This document shows, in pieces, positions 7,633-64,000 of a stretch of 64,000 bases of DNA. The stretch covers positions 787,865 to 851,864 of the forward strand of contig OY970314.1 of the NCBI GenBank assembly GCA_963716475.1, written 5' to 3'. Made by a program: the position numbers and the translations under genes. The notes under the pieces were generated by a model. That model was not told where the DNA came from. It worked only from the letters and a program-made list of their open reading frames with translations, and searched no databases. This DNA comes from Candidatus Woesebacteria bacterium. Lineage in GTDB: Bacteria > Patescibacteriota > Microgenomatia > UBA8517. How positions within the stretch are numbered: the first letter of the stretch is position 1; the number at the start of each line of letters is the position of its first letter.

Positions 7633-9188
7633 CTAAACAAATTCGAATGGGTGGAATTTTAGGTAATGAAAAAGTTTTACTGGCTTGGTTTTTAAATAAA
7701 AAAACTTGGCAAAATATCGTTTTATATCTCATTCTTTTTCTTGCCTTTGCGGTCCGCATCTATCATCTTGGCACAAACCCACCAGAACTTTTTAGTGACG
7801 AAATAACCCAGGTTTTGTCGGCCAGAACCATTTTAGAAACTGGTCGTGATACTAATGGAAAACTAAATCTGTTTTTATACAATAAGATTAAACTCGGTAC
7901 ACCTATTTCCGGTTATTTATCCGCATTTTCGACGTACGTCCTCGGAAATAACAATTTTGCAGTCAGATTACCATCCGTTTTGGCAGGAACACTGGTGGTT
8001 TTCTTAATCTTTAAACTTAACCTTTTACTAACCAAAAATAAGCTGATATCTTTAATATCAGCACTTGTCTGTGCTTTGATTCCGTGGGCAATATATTTTA
8101 GCCGTATTGCCTGGGAACCAGCGTTTACAGTACCTTTTTTACTTGCTTCAATTTATATTTTCATAAACTCAATAAATAATAAATCCGATAAAGGAATTGT
8201 TGTCTCATATATCTTATTCGCAACTTCGGTTTACGCCTCAGACGCAGCAGAATTCTTGTCACCACTGTTCCTAATGTTACTGGGGATTATTTATTTTAAA
8301 AATATCTTGAACAATAAAAAAATTCACCTATTGGGCGGGCTTATTTTTGCGATCTTACTTGTTCCAATAATATTCGTTTCGTTAACCAACCCGTTAAAAA
8401 GTGAGCGAACAATCAAAATCTCCACTTTTGCAGAGGGTGTCAATTCACAAACATTAAGAACTTTCGCAGGTAATTATATTGACCATTTTACCTATAAATT
8501 TTTATTTACAAACGGCGATCCAAACTTGAGACACGGTACAGGCCAAGATGGGGTACTTTATTGGGTACTTTTGCCATTTATCCTTATTGGAACTATTTAT
8601 TTACTGACTCATATAAAAAATAAGGAGAACCAATTTCTTATCTTGTGGGTTCTGGCATTTCCTCTTGGCGGAGCGCTAACAAATGACGGTGTACCCCATG
8701 CTACGAGGACAATAATTGGCTATCCGGTTTTGATTCTAATTGCAGCACTAGGTTTAAAACAAATGTTAATCTATATTAAAAATGTATATGTACAAAAAAT
8801 ATTTGTTTTTATATTTCTTTTGATTCTCTCACTTGAGTTTGTAAAGTTTACCCAAAGCTATTTTATAAAATACCCCATCAATTCCCAGGGTTGGTGGGAC
8901 TACGGGACCAAAAATACTTTGACTTTCATTCAGAAAAACACACGAGGCGATGAAAGTTTATGTCTTCCAAATATAGAATATTGGCATGAGGATACTTACA
9001 CTAATTATTATTTGGGTACGAAAAACAATTATCAAATCACATTTGATGTAAACGATTCGAAATGTTTAGATTCTGATATTCTAGTACTACCAGCAGGTAC
9101 TAATCCGCCCCAAAACTATCACACAATCGATGTTGTCGACAATCTGCAGGGTCAAACAATCTGGAATGTCTATCGATCTGTGAATTGA
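7587..9188 (+). CDS. GT-C family glycosyltransferase (ArnT/PMT-like, GT39/83). The donor is probably a polyprenyl-phosphate sugar.
   Basis: A motif ...GTNPPELFSDEITQVLSARTILETGRD... follows TM1, then multi-TM. GGGGAG lies 4 nt upstream of ATG 7587, and there is an alternative ATG at 7647. Confidence 0.65.
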   Translation: MGSFMDKQVWLRRILAKQIRMGGILGNEKVLLAWFLNKKTWQNIVLYLILFLAFAVRIYHLGTNPPELFSDEITQVLSARTILETGRDTNGKLNLFLYNKIKLGTPISGYLSAFSTYVLGNNNFAVRLPSVLAGTLVVFLIFKLNLLLTKNKLISLISALVCALIPWAIYFSRIAWEPAFTVPFLLASIYIFINSINNKSDKGIVVSYILFATSVYASDAAEFLSPLFLMLLGIIYFKNILNNKKIHLLGGLIFAILLVPIIFVSLTNPLKSERTIKISTFAEGVNSQTLRTFAGNYIDHFTYKFLFTNGDPNLRHGTGQDGVLYWVLLPFILIGTIYLLTHIKNKENQFLILWVLAFPLGGALTNDGVPHATRTIIGYPVLILIAALGLKQMLIYIKNVYVQKIFVFIFLLILSLEFVKFTQSYFIKYPINSQGWWDYGTKNTLTFIQKNTRGDESLCLPNIEYWHEDTYTNYYLGTKNNYQITFDVNDSKCLDSDILVLPAGTNPPQNYHTIDVVDNLQGQTIWNVYRSVN

Positions 9189-10714
9189 TACACTGTGTAT
9201 GGACCACTTCTCAAAATCTTGGTAAATCTTGAGTCATTTTTGCCTATAGAATAATCAATCAGGTAATATCCAGTAGAATCTGAATTTTTATCGATATCTC
9301 TATTGATTTCGTAAACGTTTACAACTACATACCAGGCCGCCCAATCCAAAGCAAAGTTTTTAGGGTTCGTCTCATCACTACTTACGACAAACCTATTAAA
9401 TCCTTTTGAGCCAGAATCTTTGATAATAAAATCAATAGAGTTTTTAAGAAAATTATATTGAGTATCAGAATAAGTGCTCAGATGGCCGTTTGTAAAATTA
9501 TAGTTTTTGATAAAAATCTCATATCTGAAAACAAACACCGCCCAAAACACGGCAACTAGAATAGGTAGGGCTATAAATATCCTACCCTTTAGAATTGTTG
9601 AAATGTCGTTGGCAAAGATTCCCCATAGCAAAGCAAATGATGGCAAACTTATTAAAAAATATCTTGGTATCGGGGGAACGTTAGGTAACCTAACCAAAAC
9701 AAGAAAAAAGAGGGGGGAAATTGCCCAAAGAAAAATTGTTGCCCGTAGCATCTTTTTCTCTTTGCGTATAAATATTGCCAAGAAACTATAGACCAATACC
9801 AAAAAGTTCAAGAAAATAATTGGTAACCGAAAACTTGTTAACAACGCATTATCTTTCTCAAAATCGGTGTTTCCATATCCCAACTGGTACTCAAAACTAT
9901 TTCCAGACAACACCGATATCAAACCTATAGAAATAGTCTTAATTCTTGAAAAATAATCATCCCTTCCTTCAACCAGTTGGGTTTTAATGTTTTCATTATC
10001 ATTGAGTAGATAATTCTGAAGATTAAAGTTGTAAAAATATGGAACTGTTAATAACAGCGATGTGACTATACCAATAATCAAATATCTATTGATGAGCTTA
10101 AATTTGATAGATGCAAATAGAGAGACCGCACTAATCAAAACAAACGAAATCGAATGAACGTAAAGTTCAACCAAAAAAACCCAAGAAAAAATTGTCAATG
10201 CCAACCAAAATGAGTTGGGTTTTCGAAGAGTCATAAAAAACAACACCATAGAGATAGCAATAAGTGAGACGACTGCGGTCGGCTGATATATCATTCTGGA
10301 AAAAATGTACCACCAGGGGTGTGTGGCAAGCAGTAAACCTGCCACCAAACCTGCCACCTTAGAAAAATATTTTTGGCCTAGATATATTACAAGAACTACG
10401 CTAACCAAATTGAAAATTGCAATCATGTTTGACACTAAGAGAGGGTTTCTGCTTACAAGAAAGAATGGAGCATAAAAAAAGAACAGTGAAGGTCCCCAAG
10501 AAATGTTCCCCCAAGGACTTTTTTCGGCAAATTTTTGTGTATCAATTAATTTCCCATTATCTATATATTGGATAATCCTTGTAGCCAATCTCGGTTGGTC
10601 ATAACCAAACTCAATAGTGTCAAAATGTGACAATCTTAAAAATAGATAAATTGCACAAATTACCGTCGCTACAAAAAAGAACAAGTACTTTGTTACTGAA
10701 GATTTTTGAACCAT
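9170..10714 (-). CDS. GT-C family glycosyltransferase (ArnT/PMT-like) membrane protein.
   Basis: The 514-aa polytopic protein has an N-terminal TM followed by an extracytoplasmic loop, FGYDQPRLATRIIQYIDNGKL, with the same architecture as the neighbouring GT-C genes. Confidence 0.55.
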   Translation of the reverse strand: MVQKSSVTKYLFFFVATVICAIYLFLRLSHFDTIEFGYDQPRLATRIIQYIDNGKLIDTQKFAEKSPWGNISWGPSLFFFYAPFFLVSRNPLLVSNMIAIFNLVSVVLVIYLGQKYFSKVAGLVAGLLLATHPWWYIFSRMIYQPTAVVSLIAISMVLFFMTLRKPNSFWLALTIFSWVFLVELYVHSISFVLISAVSLFASIKFKLINRYLIIGIVTSLLLTVPYFYNFNLQNYLLNDNENIKTQLVEGRDDYFSRIKTISIGLISVLSGNSFEYQLGYGNTDFEKDNALLTSFRLPIIFLNFLVLVYSFLAIFIRKEKKMLRATIFLWAISPLFFLVLVRLPNVPPIPRYFLISLPSFALLWGIFANDISTILKGRIFIALPILVAVFWAVFVFRYEIFIKNYNFTNGHLSTYSDTQYNFLKNSIDFIIKDSGSKGFNRFVVSSDETNPKNFALDWAAWYVVVNVYEINRDIDKNSDSTGYYLIDYSIGKNDSRFTKILRSGPYTVYQFTDR

Positions 10715-11775
10715 TTATTAATTTCTTCCCATTTTCCGTTACCTAGTTTGGGTATTAAAACATATTGTTTGTCATACGTTAGCGAAATGGGTGGGTTTGC
10801 AAGAAGATCTGTAGATAGAACCCTCGAATTCATATTATTTCTGGATCCGAGAGCAGCCTTTGCCAGTGCTCCGATGGCGGTTGGATCTAAATCTGTTTCG
10901 ACTGATGCTTTAACCGCCCTGAGAATTCTATAATCTTTAATCGGATTGATAACTGTACCAAAAGAAAGAACTCTTTTACTTATCGCCGAAATTATTTTTT
11001 GCTGTCTCGCCGACCTTGCAAAATCAGTATTTTCTCCGTTATCTCCTTCGCGCGACCTGGCAAATTCAAGCGCCGTCGCCCCACCCATATGGATTAAGCC
11101 CTGGTCAAAATGTATAGTTTTATAGCGGCAGGCGAACGTCAGGTCACCACCACAGGCATCATTTTCCCTGCCGGCAATTGGATACTTGGTATCCGTAAAA
11201 CTATTTTCGACAGAGACATCAATCCCTCCGATAGTATCTATAATATCCTGAAACCCGGAAAAATCGATTACCATAGCATAGTCAACCGGCTGCCCCGTAA
11301 CCTCGGATGCAACTTGCTTAGCAAAGTTTAGGCCTCCTCCACGCTCAGGCTGTAAATTACCCCAGTAGTAGGCACTATTTATCTTGGCTCTGATTTCCGG
11401 TATCCAGATATCTCTAGGAACTGAGACCAATGTTATCGAGTGGTTTATCAAAGAAATCGAAGCAAAAATCATAGTGTCTGTCAGATCTCCTCCTTCGTGT
11501 CCCTTTCCCCCTATCCCTAGAATTAATACATTTACTCTTCCGTTTTCGGATTTAACTGCCGTGGCGTTGGAAAAAAGAAAGCTTTTAACCACCTCCTGAT
11601 ACCCTGTCACACCTGCACTTTTAAAAATTGCGTTCGCTGCAACAAATGGAAGAAGCAGTACCAGAGCCACAACTAAGACGATCCCGAACCAAACCGACGA
11701 TTTATGCCGTCGAGGCAAATCATGCCGTTGGGACACCTCCTTCGGGGTGATAGAATTGATTTGTTCTTTTTCCAT
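10693..11775 (-). CDS. LCP (LytR-CpsA-Psr) family cell-wall glycopolymer ligase.
   Basis: LCP-domain motifs are present: VLILGIGGKGHEGGDLTDTMIFASI...SVPRDIWIPEIRAKINSAYYWG...VDYAMVIDFSGFQDIIDTIGGIDV. The ORF track starts it at 11877; the internal Met at 11775 gives a short cytoplasmic tail plus TM and abuts the pcrA start. Confidence 0.8.
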   Translation of the reverse strand: MEKEQINSITPKEVSQRHDLPRRHKSSVWFGIVLVVALVLLLPFVAANAIFKSAGVTGYQEVVKSFLFSNATAVKSENGRVNVLILGIGGKGHEGGDLTDTMIFASISLINHSITLVSVPRDIWIPEIRAKINSAYYWGNLQPERGGGLNFAKQVASEVTGQPVDYAMVIDFSGFQDIIDTIGGIDVSVENSFTDTKYPIAGRENDACGGDLTFACRYKTIHFDQGLIHMGGATALEFARSREGDNGENTDFARSARQQKIISAISKRVLSFGTVINPIKDYRILRAVKASVETDLDPTAIGALAKAALGSRNNMNSRVLSTDLLANPPISLTYDKQYVLIPKLGNGKWEEINKWFKNLQ

Positions 11776-11776
11776 T

Positions 11777-13624
11777 ATGTCTATTCTATCCGATCTTAAC
11801 CCCGAACAAAAGGCTGCCGTAACATATAACGGTGGGCCTCTTTTGGTTTTAGCAGGCGCCGGGTCCGGAAAAACCAAAGTATTGACCCACCGCGTGGCCT
11901 ATTTTATTGAGCAGGGCTTAATCAAATCTGAAAACGCCCTTCTTTTAACCTTCACCAATAAAGCCGCAAACGAGATGAAGGAAAGAATTTCGGGTCTTAC
12001 CAAGGGAAATACTCCAATGACCGGAACTTTCCATTCTTTCTGTGCCAAGGTGCTTAGGATCGACGGAAGACACATTGGGATCCCCGTAAATTTTATAATA
12101 TATGATGAACAGGATCAGAAGGACGCGGTAAAGCAAATTCTTGAAGGAGCGGATATATCAACCGACCAGTACAACCCGGCGTCAATCTTAAACGGCATAA
12201 GCGAAGCCAAAAATCAAATGCTGACCCCCGAGGAATATAAAGATTTCGTCCGGGGTGAATGGCAGGAGGTTGTCGCCAGGGTTTACCCTGAATATGAAAA
12301 AATGCTCAAAGAAATCGGAGCACTGGATTTTGACGACCTTTTAATTAAAACTGTCGAGCTTTTCAAAAAAGTGCCGGAGGTTTTGGAAAAATGGCAAAGA
12401 ACACTTACTCACATTTTTGTCGATGAATGGCAAGATACAAATAAAATCCAGTACACGCTGACAAAACTTTTGGTCGGCAAACGTAAAAACATTACTGCGG
12501 TCGGGGATGCTTCCCAATCTATATACTCATGGCGCGGCGCGGACTTTAGGAATATTAATTATCTGATCCGCGATTACCCTGATATAAAAGTGCTTAATTT
12601 GGAGCAAAACTACCGCTCAACCCAAAATATTCTCGACGCCGCTAACCTGGTCATTTCTAAAAACACCACTCATCCGATTTTGAAACTTTGGACTCAAAAA
12701 GCAGCCGGAGCAAAAATCAAACTTTATGCTGCCAGAAACGGTTTCGACGAAGCGGATTTTGTGGTCGATGAAATCAACTGTCTGGGAAAATATTCCGACG
12801 TCGCGGTTTTATACCGCACCAATGCTCAGTCACGGGTACTCGAAGAGGCACTTCTTCACGCCGGAATTCCCTATGTATTGGTGGGTGGAGTAAGGTTTTA
12901 CGACCGGAAAGAAATTAAGGACGTAGTTTCTTACATTAAATTTCTGGTTAACCCCAAGGATTCCGTTTCCAAAAAAAGAATCGAAAAAATCGGCCTCAGG
13001 CGCTTTGAAAAATTGAAGGAAATGGCCTCGATCGATGGAATGACAACTCTTGATATTTTGGATGCCGTCATTCAAAAAACCGATTATCTGGCTCTTTTCC
13101 AAAAAGAATCCGAGGAAAACCTGGCCCGGCTGGAAAACCTGAAAGAACTAAGGTCTGTTGCAACGGAATTTCCCAACATTAATGATTTTTTGGAAAATGT
13201 AGCCTTGGTTGAAGCTGGTCCCAGAAATAAAACCAAAAATGCGGTAACACTCATGACCCTCCACGCCGCCAAGGGCCTTGAATTCCCGATTGTTTTTATT
13301 GTCGGAATGGAAGAAGGACTCTTTCCCCATTCCCGATCCTTAATGGATACAAATCAACTGGAAGAGGAGAGACGTCTTGCTTACGTTGGAATAACTCGGG
13401 CCAAAGAAATAATTTATCTAACTTACGCAAGTTCCCGTCTTTATTTCGGGGAAAGAATAAGTAACCCCCCCAGCCGGTTCATAATGGATATCCCCGAGAA
13501 CCTCATCGAAAATCTCGGATCAAATAGTTTTTCGAAACCGGATGGTCTAAAATTGGATTCAGCTGATGATATTAAAGGAACTTTCGACGATATCATTGAA
13601 AAATACCTGGAACATGATAACTAA
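11777..13624 (+). CDS. pcrA: ATP-dependent DNA helicase of the UvrD/PcrA family.
   Basis: Seen motifs are LNPEQKAAVTYNGGPLLVLAGAGSGKTKVLTHR (Walker A), DEWQDTN and LEQNYRST. The ORF-track start 11747 is upstream; MSILSDLNPEQ at 11777 matches the usual PcrA N-terminus. Confidence 0.85.
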   Translation: MSILSDLNPEQKAAVTYNGGPLLVLAGAGSGKTKVLTHRVAYFIEQGLIKSENALLLTFTNKAANEMKERISGLTKGNTPMTGTFHSFCAKVLRIDGRHIGIPVNFIIYDEQDQKDAVKQILEGADISTDQYNPASILNGISEAKNQMLTPEEYKDFVRGEWQEVVARVYPEYEKMLKEIGALDFDDLLIKTVELFKKVPEVLEKWQRTLTHIFVDEWQDTNKIQYTLTKLLVGKRKNITAVGDASQSIYSWRGADFRNINYLIRDYPDIKVLNLEQNYRSTQNILDAANLVISKNTTHPILKLWTQKAAGAKIKLYAARNGFDEADFVVDEINCLGKYSDVAVLYRTNAQSRVLEEALLHAGIPYVLVGGVRFYDRKEIKDVVSYIKFLVNPKDSVSKKRIEKIGLRRFEKLKEMASIDGMTTLDILDAVIQKTDYLALFQKESEENLARLENLKELRSVATEFPNINDFLENVALVEAGPRNKTKNAVTLMTLHAAKGLEFPIVFIVGMEEGLFPHSRSLMDTNQLEEERRLAYVGITRAKEIIYLTYASSRLYFGERISNPPSRFIMDIPENLIENLGSNSFSKPDGLKLDSADDIKGTFDDIIEKYLEHDN

Positions 13625-53914: not shown

Positions 53915-56900
53915 TTAATTACAAGTTGCCGTACTTGTACAGCCAAGCGGAACATTTCTTTTAAGATAAGGTTTTTGAGTTGTGGGAATAGGCCCCGTGT
54001 CAAAGAATTGGAAGTGTAAATGAGGACCACTGGTACAGCTACCTGTGTTGTCACTGATTCCGAGAGGTTGGCCAATTGTTACTCTTTGACCGTTGCCAAC
54101 CATAACAGAACCCAAATGTCCGTAATATGAACTAAACGACGATCCGCCGCAGGACGAAGCCACACGAACCCACCTTCCCCCACAGGCGCTTTCCCCGGTG
54201 CTTATGGTTCCGCTATGCATGGCAATGATGGTTGCACCATTTACGCCAATGTCGATTGCATTTGGGGTGTTGTAATGTGTCCACCCCAGGGGTGTCATGG
54301 ACCCTTGGGTAATAAGATTTATGCCTGCGTCGTTGGCAAGAGGCCAGGCATTATTTGGGCATTCCATTGGCGGGGCGCCAATTATTATTGAGGCAGATCC
54401 TGCCGAAACCACACCCTTTTGGTCCGTCGTGTCTGCAGTAACAGTAAACGTGTTTACCGTTGCAGAATTGTCATAGTTGTGAGAGGTAAAACTTCGTGTG
54501 TAAGTGAAGCTAAAAGGTTTGGTCGGCGAAATCGAAACAGGCGCCGCAGGTGTCCCTTGAGAAGGGCTTGGGCAAGAGGGAGGTGTCCCTGTTTTGATAA
54601 CTTTGCATTCATCTTTAAAGGAAACATTGGTTAATACGCCTTTTTTAGCAGAAACAGTAATTGTATAGGTAATCTTGGTTTTTGTGGGAATGTCGGAGTT
54701 ATTGAAAGGGCCTGCGGGATTGGCAGTTTTTTCAACACTGATATAAGGGTTACTTAAAGCGGCAAGATAACCGGTTGGGGTTGACGGAGGAACGACATAG
54801 GCGCCGGAGTTAATAATAAAAAGAATCAGGGCAACCAGAACGGGGATGACGAGAAGGGCTATTAATATAGGCATAACAGCGGCTGTCAAAAAGGTCCTCC
54901 CTACGGCGCGAAAAAATACCGCAATTCCACTTCCAACTCCGGCCATTGTTACTCCGGCCGTGGAAGCGACACCAACGCCGACCACCGTGATCCCACCCAA
55001 AATAAGACCCGTACTACCGATGACCAAGCCACCAACCAGCATAGGCGCCCCAATAATGGCGCTTCCAATTGCCATGCCGTTTTCTTTTACCTTTTTCCAG
55101 TTGATCTTTTCAATAATTTTTCCTACCACCCAACCCAATGCCAAGGCAATCGCATTCCCGATAATCGGTATCCATGACCCTAGAGTCTGAAGAGCTGTGT
55201 TGAGAGCAACCATCGTGCCCTTGCCCACCACTGATACAGCGGCTTTTGTTGCCGCAGATGCAGCAGCCTTTCCCACTACTGGTGTTAGTAATTTTGTTAC
55301 CGCCTCGGTTTCAATTCCCGTTGCGAGACCTTCCGCGGCGACAATCCCGGTAGCACCCTCGGCCAATAAGGTTCCTCCCTCGACAACGGCTGCTTCTTCG
55401 ACCAACGCAGTGCCCTCAGTTACTAAAAGAGACGCTTCGGCAATTTCGGCAGGGGCAGCTGCACCGATCAGATCAATTCCCAAAACGTCGCCGAGACCTT
55501 CGAGAAAATTCGAACCACCCGGAATTTTTTGAATAAGACCCCCGAGCGGGCTTTCACCAATTGGCGTGGTCTTACTAAATCCCGCAGACGATAAGACTTG
55601 TTGTCCCAGCTCACTGTTGTAAAATTTGGAAATGGCGCTGTCTGCAGGCAGGTTGGCTATTTTAGAATCAAGAAAGTCTCTGGCACGACCCGTTAGTAAA
55701 CTTTTAGCCTTATCGCTAGCAAAAGAGCCAATATTGTCCAGAACATCTGACTGTGATTCCAGAAGATTAGTGTAGCCTTCATTAAGTTGCCCGAGGTCTA
55801 TTTCGTGTGTGTATCCTTCGTTCGGTTGACCTAAAAAGGAAACTTTTAAATTTTCGGGACCCGTACCAAAAACAGAAACTGCAAGATTTTCGTCTATTGA
55901 AGAGAGAATGTTCTTACTAAGTTGGGCGCTATTCTTAAAATGACCCAGATCCGCGGAGGCCTTTTTTAGAAGTTCGGCAGTGTTTGTTTCGGCGACCAAC
56001 TTTGGCAGAATCTTTGAATCCTCGGCTAAAGCACCCAGAATAGCGGATTGAGTGTTTGCGGATGATTGGGCGGGGAAATTATTAATTGCAGAAACCGTAT
56101 CAAATGCCGTTTTTTTGACTATAAAATCAATTTGTTCCGGGGTAAGTTTCTTTGAAAGCTCCGGGGTTATTTTTGCTTTTATACTTTCTGCCAAATCTTT
56201 TTCAAAGGATGCGGGATAATTTTTCGCTTCTTCTATAAACTTGATCGTACTTTCACTTGGTGGAGGAGCCTCTTTTGAAATTTCCACCCGGGCGTAAATC
56301 TTTTTACCCGTTAAAGGTTCCTGGATATCTTTTTGTCTACTAATAGCTTCTTCCAACTTTTCTTTTGCCCCCTCGCTTATGGTTGGTTGTTCCGGAATTA
56401 CCATTTTTTCTTCTGGTAGCTCAGCCGTAGGTCCCGCCTGTCGGGTAAAAAGAAGCGGTACGGATGTTATTGATTCAGAGGTAGGAGATGTTTCTATCGG
56501 TTGGCCTGAAAGTGAGACGTATGGGGTTAGTGTTGGAGCAGCAACCGCAACTGCGACAGCCGACGGTTCCACATTTAGTACCACAGGCTTAACTTCAGGG
56601 AGAACAACCTTGTCTAAAAGAACAGAGGTTTGCTTTGCAGATTCGCTCATTTTCCCGGGATAGTTAGCAGGCATAGACATCTTGGGCAGAACGGAAGGAG
56701 GTTCAATTTGACCGATTTCTACTTGTGAAGTAATAGTTGTGACACTGTTGCCAAAACTGTGAACATCGCTAATGTTGATTGCAGGTAAACTTTGATTCTC
56801 CTGATTCTCGGCTATTTTAAATTGGGTTGCCTCCTCGGGGCCGTAAGCAGCCACAACCACGTTTTCCGGTAGAAAAGTCTTCAAGAGAGCGGTGTTTGTT

Positions 56901-59900
56901 TGGTACTGTGTATTTGCGACGTCTGCGGCTGTTTTTGCAGCAGAAGCAAACTTCACCCTTTCTTCTGTGTCAGGAATGATGTTCTTAAGACCGGGATCGC
57001 GTGCGTCTGCTACAGCACTAAAATAAGCAACGGGATTAATGGGTGAGGCAATCTCTTTGGGAAGATCTTCTACGGTATTTATATTCTTACCTGCATCAAC
57101 CATACGCAAGGTGAAGTCTTGCGCTGTTTTTCCAATTACGGCCGGGGTTATAGATGCCTGTAGTGGTGGGTTTTTGGCAACAGCCGAACTGATATTTTCC
57201 TCAACGATTTTTTCGAAGGCGGGAGGGTCGTTTTTGGCGGCCTTCACAACATTAAAGAAGGCCGTTCGATCCTTGTTGCTTTGGAGAGGAATTGTTACTG
57301 TTTCAGTAGCAGGCTCAATTCTTATTTCCTTGACCGCAGTTGATGTTGTTTTTGGGGGGGTGGCAACCGCGACGGTTCCTCCGAAAAGCTCTTCCGGGAG
57401 AGAAACCTTTTCCTTGTTTATTGGGGATGGTTGGGAGGTGGTCTGGGAAGCTCCGAATTCGTCTGAAACAGGCATTTCTGATACGGAAAAAGGTGTTTCG
57501 GGAGCAGTGGTTTGTAGTATTGTGGCATGGGCGACGGGTGTTTCAGTTGTGGACAGCTCCGGCGCCAAGTTCTTTGCTTGAGTTAGGGGTTCTTCAATGG
57601 GGGCATTTTTAACACCAAAAAACGCCCTTATTCGGTCATTAATTTTTAGTTTGGTTGACGGAACCGTCGGAGTGGTGGAGACATTGATCTGAGAAACACT
57701 GGTGGGAGTTCCTACTTCGGGGGAATGCTCAGCCTCGTTAACGGGTAGCTGGGAATATGATGGTGGAAAGCCCGTTTCTTCGGTGGTAGGTAAGGGTTTG
57801 GGATTTGAAGCGGCATTCTTGTTTACAGGTATCAGGGCCGGGATTGGGGTAACAACAGGCTCCTCTGAAATGGGTGATGGTGTTTCGGAAGTGGGGGTGG
57901 TCTCCGAAGGAGTTTGACTTACTGTCGCCTGAGCAAATTGAACAGGAGGAGCAAAAACGGTCGGTGGAAACGGCGTCTGACTTGGCTCTGGAATTTGAGG
58001 AGTTTTCCCCAAGCCTTTAACAACACTATCCGTGGGCTTAACCTCTTGTGTTTGTACTACCACTGTTGGAATCACCGGTGGTATAAGCGTTACGGATGGT
58101 TCTTCGAAAACCGGTTGTGGGGACTCTTCCGTCACGGGAACGAAAGGCGGGTTCTCCGTTATTGTGGGTTGTGGTGTGCCTGGTGTAACCTGTGTTAGGT
58201 AAGGCGGTGGCGTGTATGTTACGGGTTGTGTTATGCCGGCTGCGCCTACCGAACCGGGTACACTTGTTGTTTCTTCATACGGTATCGGAGGGGTGGTATA
58301 TATCGCGGTTTCCTCTTCCGGGATCGGTTGTAACGGTTGTGGGGATTCCTCCTCTGTCCTTGCAATATGTCCAACGGCCTTTTCTCGTGAGGGCTCCCTG
58401 GTGCTGGATTCCTCTTTGGCTAGACCTTCGTTTTCCACCGGTGCCGGTTTTTTCTCAGGAGCTTTTTCAAATGTTTTTCTGATCCCTTCAAAGAAATTTT
58501 TCGGTGGGGCCTCGTCTGTAGTTTGTCTTGATTCGCCAGGTGTCCCTTTGGCCTTAGGAATTGTTCCATATACCATGGGTTGTTCTTCAGGAACGGGTTG
58601 TGATGCAGCGGATGTACCCAGAATTGACACATCTTGGGTTGGTTGAGTGGGCCGGTTAGACTGAATTGGCTGAATAGTCGGAATATACGCTACGGGTTTT
58701 TCCTCCTGGATTGGTTGCACCCCCTCTTCTCCTGCCGCCTCCTCCGTCTTTTTTGGTTTAGCTACTTTTATGGGTTGAGAGGTGTTTGGAGTATTTTGTG
58801 TGTTTGACGGTTGTTGATACCATGCCGATTGAACCTGTTGAGTGGGTTGAATCGGAATGTTTGCTGTACCCGGATTTTTTTGTATCTCTTCCGGCGCTCC
58901 CTGCGGAACAGACTGAGCCGGGTTATCGTTCTCTTTGGGAGCGGCCTTCCCGATAATGGCCGCTTGAAACGTTTTTGTTAGATTTTGAAAAGCCTGTTGG
59001 GGTGAAAACCTTCCCTTTGGTTTTGGTACACTTGGTAATTTTGACTCACCTGTTGCCTGCGTGAATGTTTGTGGCTGTTTTTCAAAAACATCCTGTGCAA
59101 GGAACGGCTCCCTGCTCAATTCGGGAGATTCTTGGATCTCCTCTTCTGTCGCTTGCGCTTCTTCTTGCCGGATTTTTTTCTGAAGATCGGCCTTACCGGT
59201 AAGCTCCTCCTGTCTACGGATTGCTGTTTTAATAGCATTTCCCAAAGCGTCGGATACTGTTTGTGTAGAGAATAGCTTTTTTGATTCCGACTTACTTGGG
59301 TTTACTGGTGAACGCATATCTTGCCTGTTTATTTCCGGTTGTTTTAATATGACACCGGGTGTCACAACGACCTCTGATGGGTGTGCGGACGGAATATGTT
59401 GTTTGAATTCTGGAGGTTTTAAAATAGCCTTTGCCTTTTGTACCTGCGGGGTCGCTTGCGGGGTAGGTTGTTTAACGGTCGTTTCCTTACCTTTTTCTGG
59501 AGCATTCTCGGCAGCTTTGACTTTTGAAGCTTCCGCCAGTGCCTGTTTTTTTTCTATTGAAGCCTGAACCTTTGCTTGGGCTTGCAGTTTTGTTTGTTTT
59601 ATCTTGCCTGTTCTTAAATTTTCCTCCGCCTGTAGTTGTGCCAGTTGATCCGGAGTTAAGGTGGTTGGGTGTACGGGGTATTCCGGCGCGCTTGTAACTG
59701 TCCGATATAAGATATTACTGGCAGACCTGATGTCGCTTGTTTTGGTTAGGTCTGTTATATAAACAAAGAAATCTTTATTGCTTGGCCAGTGGTATTTCCC
59801 GTCGATTGTCGTGAAAGATTCGTCGAGGCTCCTGTTTTCTCCTTCACCGAACAAATCGGACTTGAAAACTTGTTCGGTTCCATGAATAAGACCTTGAAGA

Positions 59901-59953
59901 TCCTGCCTGGTACATTGATCAAGAGTTTTGGGTGGAGCCAAATATTTCGCCAT
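53915..59953 (-). CDS. Giant (2012 aa) multidomain envelope protein. It has an N-terminal globular region, a roughly 1000-aa Pro/Thr/Gln/Glu-rich low-complexity region, a central folded region, a Gly/Ala-rich multi-TM block and a C-terminal M23 (LytM-type) peptidoglycan peptidase domain.
   Basis: The C-terminal about 130 aa read AIDIGVNGATIIAMHSGTIS...GGRWVRVASSCGGSSFSSYYGHLGSVMVGNGQRVTIGQPLGISDNTGSCTSGPHLHFQF, giving the HxxxD and HxH motifs. The TM cluster spans about aa 1530-1760 (nt ~54670..55370), and low complexity spans about aa 150-1150. It has no signal peptide and lies 24 nt downstream of the VirB4-like fragments. Confidence 0.7.
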   Translation of the reverse strand: MAKYLAPPKTLDQCTRQDLQGLIHGTEQVFKSDLFGEGENRSLDESFTTIDGKYHWPSNKDFFVYITDLTKTSDIRSASNILYRTVTSAPEYPVHPTTLTPDQLAQLQAEENLRTGKIKQTKLQAQAKVQASIEKKQALAEASKVKAAENAPEKGKETTVKQPTPQATPQVQKAKAILKPPEFKQHIPSAHPSEVVVTPGVILKQPEINRQDMRSPVNPSKSESKKLFSTQTVSDALGNAIKTAIRRQEELTGKADLQKKIRQEEAQATEEEIQESPELSREPFLAQDVFEKQPQTFTQATGESKLPSVPKPKGRFSPQQAFQNLTKTFQAAIIGKAAPKENDNPAQSVPQGAPEEIQKNPGTANIPIQPTQQVQSAWYQQPSNTQNTPNTSQPIKVAKPKKTEEAAGEEGVQPIQEEKPVAYIPTIQPIQSNRPTQPTQDVSILGTSAASQPVPEEQPMVYGTIPKAKGTPGESRQTTDEAPPKNFFEGIRKTFEKAPEKKPAPVENEGLAKEESSTREPSREKAVGHIARTEEESPQPLQPIPEEETAIYTTPPIPYEETTSVPGSVGAAGITQPVTYTPPPYLTQVTPGTPQPTITENPPFVPVTEESPQPVFEEPSVTLIPPVIPTVVVQTQEVKPTDSVVKGLGKTPQIPEPSQTPFPPTVFAPPVQFAQATVSQTPSETTPTSETPSPISEEPVVTPIPALIPVNKNAASNPKPLPTTEETGFPPSYSQLPVNEAEHSPEVGTPTSVSQINVSTTPTVPSTKLKINDRIRAFFGVKNAPIEEPLTQAKNLAPELSTTETPVAHATILQTTAPETPFSVSEMPVSDEFGASQTTSQPSPINKEKVSLPEELFGGTVAVATPPKTTSTAVKEIRIEPATETVTIPLQSNKDRTAFFNVVKAAKNDPPAFEKIVEENISSAVAKNPPLQASITPAVIGKTAQDFTLRMVDAGKNINTVEDLPKEIASPINPVAYFSAVADARDPGLKNIIPDTEERVKFASAAKTAADVANTQYQTNTALLKTFLPENVVVAAYGPEEATQFKIAENQENQSLPAINISDVHSFGNSVTTITSQVEIGQIEPPSVLPKMSMPANYPGKMSESAKQTSVLLDKVVLPEVKPVVLNVEPSAVAVAVAAPTLTPYVSLSGQPIETSPTSESITSVPLLFTRQAGPTAELPEEKMVIPEQPTISEGAKEKLEEAISRQKDIQEPLTGKKIYARVEISKEAPPPSESTIKFIEEAKNYPASFEKDLAESIKAKITPELSKKLTPEQIDFIVKKTAFDTVSAINNFPAQSSANTQSAILGALAEDSKILPKLVAETNTAELLKKASADLGHFKNSAQLSKNILSSIDENLAVSVFGTGPENLKVSFLGQPNEGYTHEIDLGQLNEGYTNLLESQSDVLDNIGSFASDKAKSLLTGRARDFLDSKIANLPADSAISKFYNSELGQQVLSSAGFSKTTPIGESPLGGLIQKIPGGSNFLEGLGDVLGIDLIGAAAPAEIAEASLLVTEGTALVEEAAVVEGGTLLAEGATGIVAAEGLATGIETEAVTKLLTPVVGKAAASAATKAAVSVVGKGTMVALNTALQTLGSWIPIIGNAIALALGWVVGKIIEKINWKKVKENGMAIGSAIIGAPMLVGGLVIGSTGLILGGITVVGVGVASTAGVTMAGVGSGIAVFFRAVGRTFLTAAVMPILIALLVIPVLVALILFIINSGAYVVPPSTPTGYLAALSNPYISVEKTANPAGPFNNSDIPTKTKITYTITVSAKKGVLTNVSFKDECKVIKTGTPPSCPSPSQGTPAAPVSISPTKPFSFTYTRSFTSHNYDNSATVNTFTVTADTTDQKGVVSAGSASIIIGAPPMECPNNAWPLANDAGINLITQGSMTPLGWTHYNTPNAIDIGVNGATIIAMHSGTISTGESACGGRWVRVASSCGGSSFSSYYGHLGSVMVGNGQRVTIGQPLGISDNTGSCTSGPHLHFQFFDTGPIPTTQKPYLKRNVPLGCTSTATCN

Positions 59954-59977: not shown

Positions 59978-60634
59978 CTATTTCGTCTCATAAGGGTTTG
60001 TGTTTACCTTGGCAACTTCCTCGGGCTTTGTGGTAATTAATTTATTTTCTTCTTCGGAAGCAACGACCCTGATTGGTGCATGGTGTGGCCCTGCAAAAAA
60101 TATTCCCTCCCCGACATTTGCCGCCAGAAGTAATTGTTTTTCTCCTTGCGAAAGATAAAACACTTCCCCGATTTTATCTATCGCCGCAGGACTCTGTTTA
60201 AGAAGAACCTGCATGGAGCTATTTGTGACAATGGCCTTACCGATATCCTGACCCAAAAAGTCTTCAACATCCTGTGTAATTGTTGTGAGGCCAAGATAGT
60301 ATTTTCTTGCCCTTTTAACAACACTCCATAAAAATTGGGCACTATCCGGGTACTTCATCATTTGCCAGGCCTCCTCGGCGACTAGGATGCGTTTCTTGAG
60401 GTCTTTTTTGACTCTTGTCCAAATAAAATCAAGAATGATAAACATGGCGATCGGGCGAAGAGCGTCCTGCATATCCTTGACTGAAAAAACGGTGAACGGA
60501 TTATTGATGTTGATATTTGTTTGCTTGTCAAAGATTCCGACGAAAGAACCTCTCACGAATTTTTCAATTCTGGCAGCAAGGTCGAGTGCTTCCGGCATTT
60601 CCATTCCGATTAGGGTTTTATATAAATCTTCCAT
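59978..60634 (-). CDS. C-terminal fragment of a VirB4/TrbE/CagE-family T4SS ATPase (Walker-B region to C-terminus).
   Basis: ...RILVAEEAWQMM...GEGIFFAGPHHAPIRVVASEEENKLI. It overlaps the preceding fragment by 17 nt in another frame. Confidence 0.5.
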   Translation of the reverse strand: MEDLYKTLIGMEMPEALDLAARIEKFVRGSFVGIFDKQTNININNPFTVFSVKDMQDALRPIAMFIILDFIWTRVKKDLKKRILVAEEAWQMMKYPDSAQFLWSVVKRARKYYLGLTTITQDVEDFLGQDIGKAIVTNSSMQVLLKQSPAAIDKIGEVFYLSQGEKQLLLAANVGEGIFFAGPHHAPIRVVASEEENKLITTKPEEVAKVNTNPYETK

Positions 60635-61802
60635 GAGAGGAGGCTCCCTTCCCTTGAGTGTCCGGATCTGTGGTTATTCCTTTGTTTCTGTAGGTTATAA
60701 CCAGGGCTCTGTCGAGAATAGCTTCCTGGATTGGAGTGATTTTGCCCATGATTACTTTTAAAAGAGAGTGCAGCGACAGAATTTTCTGGCCCAGCTGGTT
60801 TTCTCCTTCTTCCCTGATTTGAGCCAGATCAAAGGGATTTATTTTTGCCGGAGCATTGTAAGAGAAAGAAATATATTCTCCGCCGACAGCGGCAGTTAGA
60901 GGTTTATATTCACTTTCGGGGTCAATGACGATAACCTCCGTGCCGATCATGAGTGATCTTAAGGCCTCAAGTTTTACGAAATAAGATTTTCCGGCCCCGG
61001 ATGTCGCAAAGATCGTCATGTTTGCATTTTCAAGGCTAAATCGGTCAAAAATAATAAATGATTCATTTTGGGAATTTATACCGTACAAAACCCCGCGGTC
61101 GCTTGAAAGTTCTGTTGACGTTAGAGGAAAGGTTGTAGCAACTGAAGTTGTATCCATATTCCTTGTGACGTTTAGCCTGTCCATTCCAAACGGGGCAGTG
61201 GAAAGGAACCCGCTTTCCATGTCGAGAAGCGCGTGTTTGCTGACGATAAGGAGTGACCCAAGCTGAGACTCTACCTGTTTGGTTATGTGATTAAGCTCTT
61301 CTACCGAATTGGCGGGAATTGTAATGTAAAAACTGAATTCGAAAAATCTTTCAATTCCTTTAACGAGCTGTTCCTGGATGGCTAGGGCATCTTCGAGTTT
61401 GGCCTGGGTTACCGGGTCAACTATTTTACCGCGTTCAATGTCTGTGGACATTTCGGCTTCCATTTCCGCGATTTTTCGTCTAAGGTCGTCGAGGACGCTT
61501 TTCCCGTCAACGGGATATATATAAAAAGAAATATCGAGTGACGTATCGATATTAACTACCGGCTCAAGCCACCCGGGAGTGACGAATCTAGGGTAACCAC
61601 CCACAAAAATCGTGCGGAAATAGATATCGTTAATTTTTATATAATCAAAATCCTCATCAACCGTTTGTGGGGCAATCGCATCAAGCAAATTCATGCCCTG
61701 AGAAATTGCAAGGTTGGGATCGGTTATTTTAGGTTTAGTTTCGGCAGGGCCAATTGGCGGAACCGCCATTTGCTGCGTTTGTTTATTTGGATCTTGTTTC
61801 AT
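60618..61802 (-). CDS. Central fragment of a VirB4/TrbE/CagE-family T4SS ATPase, including the Walker A motif.
   Basis: ...DFDYIKINDIYFRTIFVGGYPRFVTPGWLEPVV... and P-loop MTIFATSGAGKSYF. It ends ...ITYRNKGITTDPDTQGKGASSHGRFI* after an apparent frame change. Confidence 0.55.
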   Translation of the reverse strand: MKQDPNKQTQQMAVPPIGPAETKPKITDPNLAISQGMNLLDAIAPQTVDEDFDYIKINDIYFRTIFVGGYPRFVTPGWLEPVVNIDTSLDISFYIYPVDGKSVLDDLRRKIAEMEAEMSTDIERGKIVDPVTQAKLEDALAIQEQLVKGIERFFEFSFYITIPANSVEELNHITKQVESQLGSLLIVSKHALLDMESGFLSTAPFGMDRLNVTRNMDTTSVATTFPLTSTELSSDRGVLYGINSQNESFIIFDRFSLENANMTIFATSGAGKSYFVKLEALRSLMIGTEVIVIDPESEYKPLTAAVGGEYISFSYNAPAKINPFDLAQIREEGENQLGQKILSLHSLLKVIMGKITPIQEAILDRALVITYRNKGITTDPDTQGKGASSHGRFI

Positions 61803-61807
61803 AATTT

Positions 61808-62533
61808 TTAATTCTTGTTTTGTTCATGTTCTAACGTAACCTCCGGCTCTTTTTTTACTGCAGGGTGTTCGGGATTATAGATAGAATAGAAAAGAGCAAT
61901 CAGGTCTGCTGTTCCAAGTTGCTTGAATTTTATTCCAAGGCGCCCTGCCTGGCGGATCAGATGGTCGCGTCTTGGATAAAGAGCAATTTTTGCCTTTTTG
62001 ACAACATAGGACTCGGCGAAAGGAAGCGGTCCCGCCCGTTTTGTTATGCTGGCGACAGAGTTTCCTACCCCCAGCTCCAGCGGCGAAAAGTAGAGTACTA
62101 CAAAAAATCTTTTTCCAAGAACATTCTTCTTTTTAACCGAATCGACAACGAAGTTTTTATAATTTTGCATGAGTTTAATAAGTATCGGTCGCGTAAGTTT
62201 TTTTGCCTCTTCATCCAGAAAGCTTAGGTATGAAGACACATCCTTTCTTTGCGTAAGGACTATCAACTGGATAGCAAAGGTCAGGGAATTGATCATTGCG
62301 GCGTAAGCCGCAATAACCGCGACCTGTTCCCTTTCGGACAGAAGGCCGAAGTTTAAGGATGTAGATTCCATGACAAGAGCCGCTCCGCCATCCTTATAGA
62401 CAACGACGTCGTTTGTGATGTCGGCAATAGGAAGATGTTCCTGAGTGGTTGCGATAAGGGGTTTATCGGGAGTTGATAGAATAGGTATTTTGGGAAAATT
62501 TTTCATCGTAAATTGATTATTGATAATTGGCAC
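61808..62533 (-). CDS. N-terminal-domain-like fragment of VirB4 (CagE_TrbE_VirB N-terminal pattern), or a separate small subunit.
   Basis: EHLPIADITNDVVVYKDGGAALVMESTSLNFGLLSEREQ... matches the VirB4 N-terminal pattern (IPY..hV.d.ii.tkdGsl..v..l.G..FE..s.ee). Its stop lies 5 nt before the next ATG, out of frame. Confidence 0.4.
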   Translation of the reverse strand: MPIINNQFTMKNFPKIPILSTPDKPLIATTQEHLPIADITNDVVVYKDGGAALVMESTSLNFGLLSEREQVAVIAAYAAMINSLTFAIQLIVLTQRKDVSSYLSFLDEEAKKLTRPILIKLMQNYKNFVVDSVKKKNVLGKRFFVVLYFSPLELGVGNSVASITKRAGPLPFAESYVVKKAKIALYPRRDHLIRQAGRLGIKFKQLGTADLIALFYSIYNPEHPAVKKEPEVTLEHEQNKN

Positions 62534-63611
62534 TAAAACCGGGATCTACTGATTGAACAATTGGTTGTGGCATGCCCCCTTGATCAAAAGTAACAGAGTC
62601 CTGTATCTTTCGGCCCTCGACAAGTATGGGAGGGATTAAAGTTCCTGCCGCATCAAAACTTATGGGTGCAAATTGATAGCCGTCTTTTTCGGTTGCTATT
62701 TGGTATCTGCCGCTGTCAAGTGGAGTAACAGTAATGAAATGTCCGACCTTGTTGCTTCTCAGGGCCCGCACGGGACGCCCCATCTCATTCCTGATTTCCA
62801 TGATGGCCCCCTCGATGATCTTTCTGTTTTCATCAACCACCTGTCCGACCACAACATTAGGAGTTTCGGGAGGATTGGGGGGAGCTGCATCAACCGAGAA
62901 AATAGCCTGTTTGGTCGAAACAATTTCATCGCCGGCGACGATCGGCGCAACGTTATGAGAGGTTGCGTTGACGGATGGAGCCATTTTTGTTTTTTCCTCT
63001 ACTACCAGACGGGGTGTGTTCTGCGGCACTATTTTCATCGGAATAGAAACGGGAACACTTAAAACACTTTTTGCTTCGGTAGGGGTAGGTGCGGGAGCAG
63101 CAGGCGCGGGAGCAGGAGTTTGAGTTTTCATCCCGGCGAAAATTCCGCTAAGAGCCGCTAAAAATCCCTGCTCGGCCAGCTCAAACCTGGAGAACGGGCT
63201 AGTATTTTGTTTTGGGGTGGTAAGGTAAACCTTAAGTGCGGCTTCCTGGGTGGTGGTGCCGGATACGGTGGGAGTTTCTACAGCTTCGTCTTGGAAAAAC
63301 TTGACGGGAGAAGTGGTTTGTTTCCAAAAAAATTCTGTGGGTGAATAAATTACCTTGAAGAAAGCAAAAATCCAACGTTCAAGCGGCCTCTCCTCCAAAG
63401 GGACAAAGGCCATACCGGCGCCAAGAAGAGCAGAAAGAATCGCCAGAGGCCATTTAATAATGCCGATAAGAGGAAGGGAGTAGATAATAAATGCGATGAC
63501 TAAACCGCCGGCCAACTCAAAGAACTGCTTAAGAGTCATGTCTCCCACCAACCGGAATTGGTAGGATGATATATTTTGCGGGATTGCGTGTTGTTCCATG
63601 CTCTTCGGCAA
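62517..63611 (-). CDS. VirB3/PrgI-like two-TM protein with a Pro/Ala-rich linker and a C-terminal extracytoplasmic domain.
   Basis: The N-terminal 100 aa LKQFFELAGGLVIAFIIYSLPLIGIIKWPLAILSALLGAGMAFVPL form a helical hairpin in the position usually held by VirB3/PrgI just upstream of VirB4. A TQTPAPAPAAPAPTPTEAKS linker is followed by about 180 aa more. Confidence 0.35.
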   Translation of the reverse strand: MPKSMEQHAIPQNISSYQFRLVGDMTLKQFFELAGGLVIAFIIYSLPLIGIIKWPLAILSALLGAGMAFVPLEERPLERWIFAFFKVIYSPTEFFWKQTTSPVKFFQDEAVETPTVSGTTTQEAALKVYLTTPKQNTSPFSRFELAEQGFLAALSGIFAGMKTQTPAPAPAAPAPTPTEAKSVLSVPVSIPMKIVPQNTPRLVVEEKTKMAPSVNATSHNVAPIVAGDEIVSTKQAIFSVDAAPPNPPETPNVVVGQVVDENRKIIEGAIMEIRNEMGRPVRALRSNKVGHFITVTPLDSGRYQIATEKDGYQFAPISFDAAGTLIPPILVEGRKIQDSVTFDQGGMPQPIVQSVDPGFSANYQ

Positions 63612-63748
63612 GGTAAAAGAGCATCAAAAGCGAAGCTTTTATGCTTTACCCTACTTTTAGAGTACGTCGTGAACGTATTGTTTCAAGCGGTAAGCCTTTT
63701 CACGCACCGTTATTTACCTTTTGCCTGCCTCCGTGCTACAATTTCGGT

Positions 63749-64000
63749 ATGCCCGACAATATGTCTCCGGAACAGTCGTCAGTCGATTTTATGAGAACGT
63801 TGGGCCAACCGGTCAAACTTCCCGGTGCTGAAGAAGCAGCAAAAGCCGCGCAAGAATTTCCTATGCCGGAAGCTACGGGTTTCATACCTGATATAAGAAT
63901 GCAAGTGCAAGAGGAGGAAGAGGATAGAAACCCTCTAAAGGAGAGGTTGGAACATGAGCGTAGATTACAAGAAATGTACAGTGAGACGGGTTCTCTGAGA
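63749..64000 (+). CDS. Partial (3'-truncated) hypothetical protein, divergent from the T4SS-like block.
   Basis: The frame from ATG 63749 stays open to the window end (MPDNMSPEQSSVDFMRTLGQPVKLPGAEEAAKAAQEF...). It is not in the ORF track because no stop falls within the window. Confidence 0.3.
   Translation, partial: MPDNMSPEQSSVDFMRTLGQPVKLPGAEEAAKAAQEFPMPEATGFIPDIRMQVQEEEEDRNPLKERLEHERRLQEMYSETGSLR

Follow-up and report, generated by a model that had tools for sequence, protein, structure and literature searches.

What is a protein of 2012 residues, which ends in an M23 (LytM-type) peptidase, doing directly behind the virB4 gene of a type IV secretion system (T4SS)? The question is raised by a stretch of 64,000 nucleotides (nt) from Candidatus Woesebacteria bacterium (assembly GCA_963716475.1, contig OY970314.1, positions 787,865-851,864), hereinafter the window, to which the positions below refer. 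We posit, with a probability of roughly 60%, that the protein is a membrane-anchored peptidoglycan hydrolase dedicated to the chromosomal, origin-proximal T4SS of this Woesebacteria-type (Microgenomatia) Patescibacterium, and as such a functional counterpart of VirB1 and PrgK. The gene and its neighbors on the same strand are as follows, with open reading frame abbreviated as ORF and transmembrane as TM:

62517..63611, minus strand: PrgI-like (VirB3-like) membrane protein, syntenic in relatives (Pfam PrgI E 2.5e-6; hydrophobic residues 25-73)
61808..62533, minus strand: TrsD-like protein of 241 residues (NCBIfam TrsD E 1.3e-5, below the curated cut-off)
59978..61802, minus strand: virB4 of the CD1110 type, split into ORFs of 394 and 218 residues that overlap by 17 nt
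53915..59953, minus strand: the gene under study, uninterrupted from ATG to stop, 2012 residues plus stop codon
52907..53905, minus strand: downstream partner of 332 residues, with an N-terminal TM anchor and a predicted extracellular tandem alpha+beta fold like that of YycI/YpeB

A role in channel building is the best supported one, since the genes of this protein family stand directly after virB4 within a PrgI/TrsD/VirB4 cluster in 40 of 40 loci, obtained by scanning one genome per GTDB species. Of these loci 24 are labeled Patescibacteria, Woesebacteria or Microgenomates, 14 "uncultured Gammaproteobacteria", one "Alphaproteobacteria" and one "bacterium"; as the synteny and DnaA/VirB4 similarity of the 16 oddly labeled loci match those of the rest, we take them to be mislabeled. 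The order PrgI-like, TrsD-like, VirB4, family protein, bitopic partner, dnaN, dnaA holds throughout the set as far as the contigs reach, with the TrsD-like gene present in 39 loci and the fortieth beginning within virB4. An earlier, sequence-only reading of the window had pointed to homologs next to VirB4 in other genomes as informative and had proposed a channel-building role; the former prove to be the rule, and the latter draws its support from them. In the window, the gene lies 24 nt 3' of virB4 and the partner gene starts 9 nt past its stop codon. The partner gene in turn converges on dnaN and then dnaA, with rnpA, yidC and a jag/khpB-like gene (KH and R3H domains) beyond.

The same surroundings admit another explanation, namely that the protein is a general hydrolase of wall growth or division, which adjoins virB4 because gene order around the origin is conserved and not because the two act together. 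A variant of this would be a device like FtsEX-EnvC, where an ATPase in the cytoplasm governs a LytM domain outside it to bring about cell separation. The entire dnaA/dnaN-adjacent region is indeed syntenic across the class, and the folds recognized in the partner are those of YycI/YycH, regulators of the cell-wall homeostasis kinase WalK. However, the tight same-strand spacing on both sides of the gene is at odds with mere proximity, and the order is that of conjugation modules in Gram-positives, whose hydrolase likewise comes after VirB4 (PMC12857230, PMC12102498). Housekeeping hydrolases are also not usually swapped among M23, CHAP, amidase and zincin types in close relatives, which is what we observe in this family (see below). 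Hence, we regard a division hydrolase as quite improbable.

Published accounts of patescibacterial T4SSs provide a setting for the preferred reading of a T4SS-dedicated hydrolase. These systems are described as MPF-FATA-like, without a relaxase and, in many classes, close to dnaA; for the Microgenomatia, the same account reports scarce VirB6 homologs, VirB1 mostly not found near virB4, and few homologs of VirB1, VirB6 or VirB8 beside virB4 (PMC12102498). The T4SS genes of Ca. Southlakia epibionticum (SEML1_0006-0019), the only species amenable to genetics, are reported to be essential for its epibiotic growth (PMC10633639), as are the peptidase and lysozyme homologs directly after virB4 (PMC12102498, citing Wang et al. 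2023, PMC10633639). There too, the T4SS lies near the chromosome start with wall hydrolases right behind virB4 (PMC10633639, PMC12102498). This organism belongs to a different class (Saccharimonadia as against Microgenomatia), and we liken the two by position and description. Neither a giant arm nor a head-partner cassette of the kinds presented below is described for its cluster in the passages of these accounts that we consulted (PMC10633639, PMC12102498).

Could the size of the protein be an artifact, with adjacent genes joined by assembly errors or lost stop codons, as the sequence-only reading had allowed? Indel errors are conceivable in this assembly, given that a 1-nt insertion near position 60640 splits virB4 just upstream (CTCAAGGGAAGGG versus CTCAA-GGGCGCG in the three aligned relatives L001, L007 and L002); the virB4 of L001 is a single ORF of 593 residues, and the split in the window is due to an indel of the assembly or else to a genuine frameshift. 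Against a chimera, the whole-protein homolog search matched at least two proteins. One (P0001) is identical to ours and already on record on a 982,852-bp contig. The other (P0002) is an independent metagenomic homolog of 1885 residues with 41-44% identity, which starts with the same N-terminus, has an arm like ours along with both helical domains, and carries the TM block and the Ig-like domain as well; the inserted arm and the domain duplication are common to the two. As an exact copy is on record and P0002 is of like build, the 2012-residue ORF is real and no fusion of neighboring genes. Moreover, the N-terminal domain and the C-terminal module reside in one ORF in dozens of relatives, and 2012 codons free of stops at about 46% G+C are beyond chance. 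We accordingly reject the chimera and give it next to no credence.

The membrane-proximal and C-terminal parts of the protein comprise the following features (pLDDT, the predicted local distance difference test score, is taken from an AlphaFold model of residues 1190-2012 with 34 aligned sequences as input):

53984..54316, minus strand: M23 (LytM-type) metallopeptidase head, residues 1880-1990, with the candidate active site H1893, D1901, H1946, H1978 and H1980
54359..54754, minus strand: one Ig-like beta-sandwich, residues 1734-1865, with nearly invariant Cys1783 and Cys1794
54788..54913, minus strand: robust TM helix, about residues 1688-1713, with FFRAVGRTF before it and the nearly invariant ILFIINSGAYVVPP after it
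54914..55183, minus strand: Gly-rich hydrophobic block, residues 1591-1680, with up to three marginal membrane segments and pLDDT below 50

The M23 assignment made in the first reading is borne out both by Pfam (Peptidase_M23, PF01551, residues 1898-1985, E 1.3e-13, 51.4 bits against a curated cut-off of 28.7) and by a confident M23 fold in the model. It is the only hydrolase domain recovered in the protein with Pfam and NCBIfam, which gave no match to SLT, muramidase or CHAP domains. Active M23 members carry a canonical HxxxD motif, and such a motif had at first been read here; the actual motif is T-H1893-YNTPNAI-D1901, an H-x7-D arrangement with the histidine eight residues before the aspartate and a proline at the canonical histidine position (PNAID). 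The H-x6-8-D spacing is kept in nearly all the canonical M23-bearing relatives listed, and YGH1946L and H1978-L-H1980 are conserved likewise. Given the conservation of the shifted histidine, YGHL and HLH, a full catalytic set is plausible from the sequence; as the first motif is non-canonical, we infer rather than assert that the head is active. Ahead of the head, the model contains a single seven-stranded beta-sandwich (residues about 1737-1858; weak match to the Ig-like Pfam family DUF7507 at residues 1735-1849) in place of the two Ig-like segments suggested earlier.

On which side of the membrane do these parts lie? A Gly/Ala-rich hydrophobic block is present upstream of the head, as originally read, but the roughly six TM helices ascribed to it reduce to four candidates in a Kyte-Doolittle hydropathy scan (residues 1591-1613, 1626-1648, 1650-1673 and 1688-1712). 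By a rough Hessa-scale sum, only the last of these is a robust TM helix (-5.7), both in the window protein and in 33 of the 34 aligned sequences (33 being scorable), whereas the up to three segments in the Gly-rich block are marginal (about +1 to +1.5). The A/G/E-rich stretch of residues 1500-1590 is acidic and not TM. AlphaFold models residues 1410-1690 poorly (pLDDT below 50) and places a long helix over residues 1673-1715. Lysines and arginines are grouped in a conserved K-rich loop inside the Gly-rich block (KIIEKINWKKVKEN, residues 1612-1625) and just before the last TM helix, and are almost absent after it. Cysteines show the opposite asymmetry, with one in residues 1-1713 and eight in residues 1714-2012. 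Across 159 retrieved family members with the motif IN[STA]G[AS]Y, which is also the set used for the length statistics below, there are 0.044 cysteines per 100 residues before the motif as compared to 2.59 after it (59-fold; medians 0 and 8 cysteines).

The hydropathy scan finds nothing hydrophobic in the first ~1100 residues, and the protein therefore has no signal peptide, in agreement with the sequence-only reading. The simplest model is thus an N-in/C-out protein with the last helix as its signal anchor. The cysteine asymmetry, the charges flanking the TM helix and the robustness of that helix all point to this topology, which is also that of PrgK. The Gly-rich block would then be a membrane-associated hairpin with its first segment peripheral. 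At the outer end of the last TM helix, ILFIINSGAYVVPP (residues 1714-1722, nt 54788-54814) is the most conserved stretch of the family, above the catalytic domain; it might be a docking or processing site. We also considered a VirB6-like polytopic subunit (PrgH, TrbL, Orf15) for the TM block and rejected it, as neither Pfam nor NCBIfam gives a VirB6, TrbL or PrgH profile match, only one TM helix is robust, and a separate polytopic candidate is encoded upstream in relatives.

The remainder of the protein, from its N-terminus to the membrane block, divides as follows:

59669..59953, minus strand: N-terminal domain, residues 1-95, conserved family-wide and located at the very start of at least 54 family proteins
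59504..59668, minus strand: charged K/E/Q-rich segment, residues 96-150 (TLTPDQL...), conserved across the family
57374..59503, minus strand: low-complexity P/T/Q/E-rich arm, residues 151-860, by composition and charge-hydropathy
56654..57373, minus strand: conserved domain, copy 1, residues 861-1100, matching the single domain present here in some relatives
55724..56368, minus strand: helical domain, copy 2, residues 1196-1410, pLDDT about 90
55184..55723, minus strand: pre-membrane region, residues 1411-1590, poorly modeled and not TM, A/G/E/V-rich from about residue 1497

The N-terminal 1500 residues had been described as mostly low-complexity. This is true only of residues ~150-860, where the long P/T/Q/E-rich arm noted earlier is indeed present by composition, while residues 1-95, 861-1100 and 1196-1410 are conserved or folded. 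The arm falls on the disordered side of the charge-hydropathy boundary and, on this sequence criterion, is probably disordered. No DNA tandem repeats were found in it, and a self-BLAST of residues 1-1250 gave no internal repeats at E <= 1, with only a short F..KTF-type motif recurring. The charged segment before it could, at a guess, be a helix or coiled coil. Copy 2 is modeled as an all-helical domain with two short strand pairs, and the model is confident over residues 1190-1410. Copy 1 is weakly similar to it (26% identity over 145 residues, E 6e-4) and on that account is probably helical too; some relatives match copy 1 and others copy 2. For the N-terminal domain and both copies, Pfam returned nothing better than E 0.016 and a PDB profile search nothing better than E 0.078, and the non-M23 parts in general (N-terminal domain, helical domains, Gly-rich block and INSGAYVVPP motif) are without a Pfam, NCBIfam or PDB-sequence match.

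Given the N-in/C-out topology, the arm is probably cytoplasmic. From general knowledge, its E/Q/K content suits a cytoplasmic linker, of which the P/Q-rich linker of FtsK is an example, better than a wall-spanning Pro/Thr linker. The sequence-only reading had left the arm to either the cytoplasm or the surface; cysteine distribution, charge and composition favor the former at the expense of the latter, and a cell-cell-contact role for the arm is weakened as a consequence.

How much of this architecture is general? A search with residues 1301-1881 retrieved 53 proteins, mostly of 750-1005 residues, and those with a source name come from Woesebacteria, Microgenomates or Patescibacteria. A HMMER scan of 1.84 billion cluster representatives (50% identity clusters) with residues 1190-1880 as query expands the family to at least 621 clusters at E <= 1e-3, 264 of them at E <= 1e-30. 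A typical member consists, in order, of the N-terminal domain, the charged segment, one helical domain, the Gly-rich block, the last TM helix with ILFIINSGAYVVPP, the Ig-like domain (missing from some members) and the head. Among the 159 members, the median length is 898 residues (interquartile range 775-934). The part after the motif, which would be extracellular, is constrained (median 305 residues, 5-95% range 205-327), and the part before it has a median of 594 residues (5-95% range 277-707) with outliers at 1349, 1567 and 1713. The last of these is the window protein, the longest of all at ~2.3 times the family median (2012 versus 898 residues); only three of the retrieved proteins exceed 1200 residues. 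What it has beyond the typical member is the ~700-residue arm and the second helical domain. The arm is missing from relatives of ~900 residues and a similar one is present in P0002, and on this distribution it is a lineage-specific insertion common to the two. The giant size is accordingly a lineage-specific cytoplasmic insertion of ~1050 residues, made up of the ~700-residue P/T/Q/E-rich segment and a diverged second helical copy. Such size is a rare expansion rather than a trait that defines the family.

The family is also distinguished by what happens at its C-terminus. In the 40 loci we called ORFs and used BLAST to sort the C-terminal heads, and likewise the proteins encoded downstream, into classes. 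The two sets of classes correspond one-to-one in 33 of the 33 loci where both could be called. The pairings (H for head classes, D for downstream classes) are:

H0, canonical M23: D0, 330-344 residues, 10 of 10 loci
H1, divergent M23: D1, about 150 residues, 9 of 9 loci
H2, HExxH zincin-like: D2, about 190 residues, 5 of 5 loci
H3, CHAP: D5, 2 of 2 loci
H4, Amidase_2: D6, 2 of 2 loci
H5 and H11, M23 without the Ig-like domain: D4, 3 of 3 loci
H6 and H10, CHAP/NlpC-P60-like (H10 itself without a Pfam match): D3, 3 of 3 loci
H9, M23 without the Ig-like domain: D9, a downstream class of its own, in the single locus L026

Thus, the hydrolase head and the downstream gene act as an exchangeable pair across relatives. 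Those heads that Pfam can identify are all M23, CHAP/NlpC-P60 or Amidase_2, all of them peptidoglycan hydrolases. The head classes are scattered on a DnaA neighbor-joining tree: the locus with the nearest DnaA (L007, 93% identical to that of the window) has a zincin-like head, and one clade, with DnaA about 81-83% identical to the window's, holds four head classes. All the downstream proteins have a short basic N-terminus and one TM anchor. The 332-residue type is seen only with canonical M23 heads; a VirB8/TcpC reading of it was considered and is not favored over the YycI/YpeB-like fold. Homology between the partner classes beyond the TM anchor was not detected with hhalign (probability 77% or less, mostly over the anchor), a weak negative given the shallow alignments. 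The covariation of head and partner, and this Microgenomatia family as the component after virB4, are apparently new relative to the T4SS literature with which we compared them.

Such covariation is what one would also expect if the enzyme were directed as a weapon at the cell wall of the host and came with a cognate gene to protect the producer, and this is the main rival to our reading, with a division hydrolase and an assembly artifact less likely. Here, a T4SS-linked protein would breach the wall of the bacterial host of the epibiont, the exchangeable heads would follow the chemistry of the host wall or an arms race, and the membrane-anchored protein encoded downstream would confer immunity to, or inhibit, its own type of head, as in polymorphic toxin-immunity pairs. 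The effector-immunity pairs of Xanthomonas T4SSs offer a parallel. The strict pairing, the scatter of the head classes within close relatives and the want of detectable homology among partner classes are all in keeping with it. So is the rate of change: between the window and L001, VirB4 is 93-95% and DnaA 91% identical, as compared to 78% for the M23 head, 70% for the partner and 55-56% for the helical and TM-Ig parts, and judged by these identities the family protein evolves far faster than its neighbors. The reported essentiality of the S. epibionticum T4SS for epibiotic growth (PMC10633639) fits as well. On the other hand, an attack on another cell is difficult to square with an extracellular tether this short and this constrained in length, and neither a release site nor a secretion signal was identified in the family protein. 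Any cut that opens the mesh would serve channel building, which likewise explains the diversity of heads, and covariation is equally expected of a co-evolving scaffold or regulator. Because the head is tied to the producer's membrane by the Ig-like domain and short linkers of constrained length, we favor action within the producer's own envelope and consider a host-directed weapon unlikely.

Several observations count against a hydrolase that serves the T4SS of its own cell in the topology proposed. Heads are swapped fast among close relatives (DnaA > 80% identical), and this is not obviously expected of an enzyme acting on its own, slowly changing wall. The first zinc-ligand motif is non-canonical (H-x7-D), and degenerate LytM domains, such as that of EnvC, are regulatory rather than catalytic, as the LytM domain of PrgK appears to be. 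As virB4 is frameshifted, the system may be impaired in this genome, unless the frameshift is an assembly error. With respect to topology, the Gly-rich block is modeled only at pLDDT below 50; were all four Kyte-Doolittle segments to cross the membrane, which is unlikely, the N- and C-termini would lie on one side. Pro/Thr-rich linkers are, furthermore, typical of extracellular proteins too.

Returning to the T4SS-dedicated hydrolase, we propose the following mechanism. The first ~1690 residues, comprising the N-terminal domain, the disordered arm, two helical domains and the Gly-rich membrane-associated block, would be cytoplasmic, and the last strongly hydrophobic helix (~residues 1688-1713) would serve as an N-in/C-out signal anchor. 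This would place the Cys-rich Ig-like spacer and the M23 zinc endopeptidase outside the membrane, where the latter may cut peptide cross-links locally to let the T4SS span the wall. Through its cytoplasmic domains, the enzyme could be linked to the VirB4/TrsD/PrgI machinery, and the bitopic YycI/YpeB-like protein encoded downstream would serve this particular type of head as an inhibitor, chaperone or scaffold. The earlier notion of a peptidoglycan-cutting head tethered to the membrane is thereby supported as a prediction.

The closest published parallel is PrgK of the Enterococcus faecalis plasmid pCF10, a VirB1-like protein of the DELTA class. Like the window protein, it is encoded in an MPF-FATA-type T4SS cluster and combines a long intracellular N-terminal region, a TM anchor and an extracellular hydrolase part that includes a LytM/M23 fold (PMC12857230). 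The architecture, which had been called unlike that of standard LytM factors, is therefore distinct from them but not unprecedented. PrgK differs in having three extracellular domains, LytM, muramidase and CHAP, of which the muramidase is active and the LytM apparently regulatory (PMC12857230), whereas the window protein has an Ig-like domain and then a single head, whose catalytic set is potentially complete. Outside the M23 domain, the two were not found to be similar in sequence. As with the VirB1-like hydrolases of monoderms in general (PrgK, TraG, Orf14/CwlT), the window gene sits in a T4SS cluster next to virB4. Since transglycosylase, muramidase and CHAP domains are all absent and similarity is confined to M23, we do not file the window protein as a VirB1/TrsG/CD419 homolog; on its sequence it is a functional analog of these proteins rather than a demonstrated homolog. 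Free and division-associated M23/LytM proteins, such as LytM, lysostaphin, EnvC and ShyA/MepM, are secreted or periplasmic and much shorter (the matched chains have about 130 to about 490 residues), whereas here the M23 domain forms the last 130 residues of a predicted N-in/C-out membrane protein, carries the H-x7-D motif and is encoded in a T4SS operon.

The modularity recalls polymorphic toxin-immunity systems and a patescibacterial operon (PMC12419801), both of which combine a conserved N-terminal or membrane module with alternative C-terminal enzyme heads; as in the toxin-immunity systems, the downstream gene changes along with the head. The operon belongs to an ABC transporter/VanZ context, as against the T4SS setting here, and joins a single membrane-anchored N-terminal region to peptidases of the papain-like or Gly-Gly type (PMC12419801). 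Unlike in toxin-immunity systems, every identified head is a wall hydrolase that is predicted to be tethered to the producer's own membrane, and no secretion or processing signal was found in the family protein. Combining the two lines of thought, one may picture a modular, T4SS-coupled interface enzyme, in which a conserved chassis carries interchangeable hydrolase heads, each inherited with a cognate membrane-anchored inhibitor or immunity protein, and recombination among Woesebacteria shuffles these cassettes so that they match or outpace the walls of the hosts; a few lineages would have added a ~700-residue disordered arm on the cytoplasmic side, which in so small a cell may serve as a tether or hub. 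We offer this as speculation and deem it unlikely; if true, it would amount to a polymorphic "wall-breaching" system within a core secretion machine.

Other genes of these loci merit mention. The PrgI-like protein (364 residues) continues past its two-TM PrgI part into a Pro/Ala/Thr-rich linker and a weak match to a CarboxypepD_reg-like beta-sandwich (E 3.5e-4), an extension that lies outside the 91-position Pfam PrgI model. Some relatives have a VirB4 of 1191 or 1349 residues (L014:5580-9155 and L019:5127-9176, probably also L016) on account of an in-frame intein in the P-loop domain (Intein_splicing E 1e-17 to 2e-19) with a homing endonuclease (LAGLIDADG_3 E about 1e-20). Beyond the end of the window, a few kb upstream of the PrgI-like gene, relatives encode a conserved protein of 566 residues (L001:1032-2732, plus strand), of which at least 25 loci have an equivalent. 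Its N-terminus resembles a signal sequence, it has about seven hydrophobic segments, and it is a candidate for the VirB6 analog missing so far from Microgenomatia. Positions 63650-64000 (plus strand) hold the first ~110 codons of a large gene divergent from the T4SS operon, whose counterpart in L001 has 1083 residues (L001:2735-5986, minus strand) and which is poorly conserved among relatives. The upstream L001 proteins of 1083, 566 and 307 residues have no Pfam match. Elsewhere in the window, two membrane glycosyltransferases of the PMT (protein O-mannosyltransferase-like) family (4083-6527, minus strand, and 7587-9188, plus strand) and a nearby LytR_cpsA_psr gene (10693-11877) suggest glycosylation of envelope proteins or polymers; we found no evidence tying them to the Pro/Thr-rich arm.

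The Patescibacteria account for much of bacterial diversity, and their usual way of life is attachment to other bacteria. Directly after virB4 we now place a family of at least 621 clusters, with a domain map and a likely topology. The giant arm that first drew attention to the locus, itself a rare expansion, is of less consequence than the family behind it, which offers testable candidates for two missing parts of the T4SS, a wall-opening component and its regulator.

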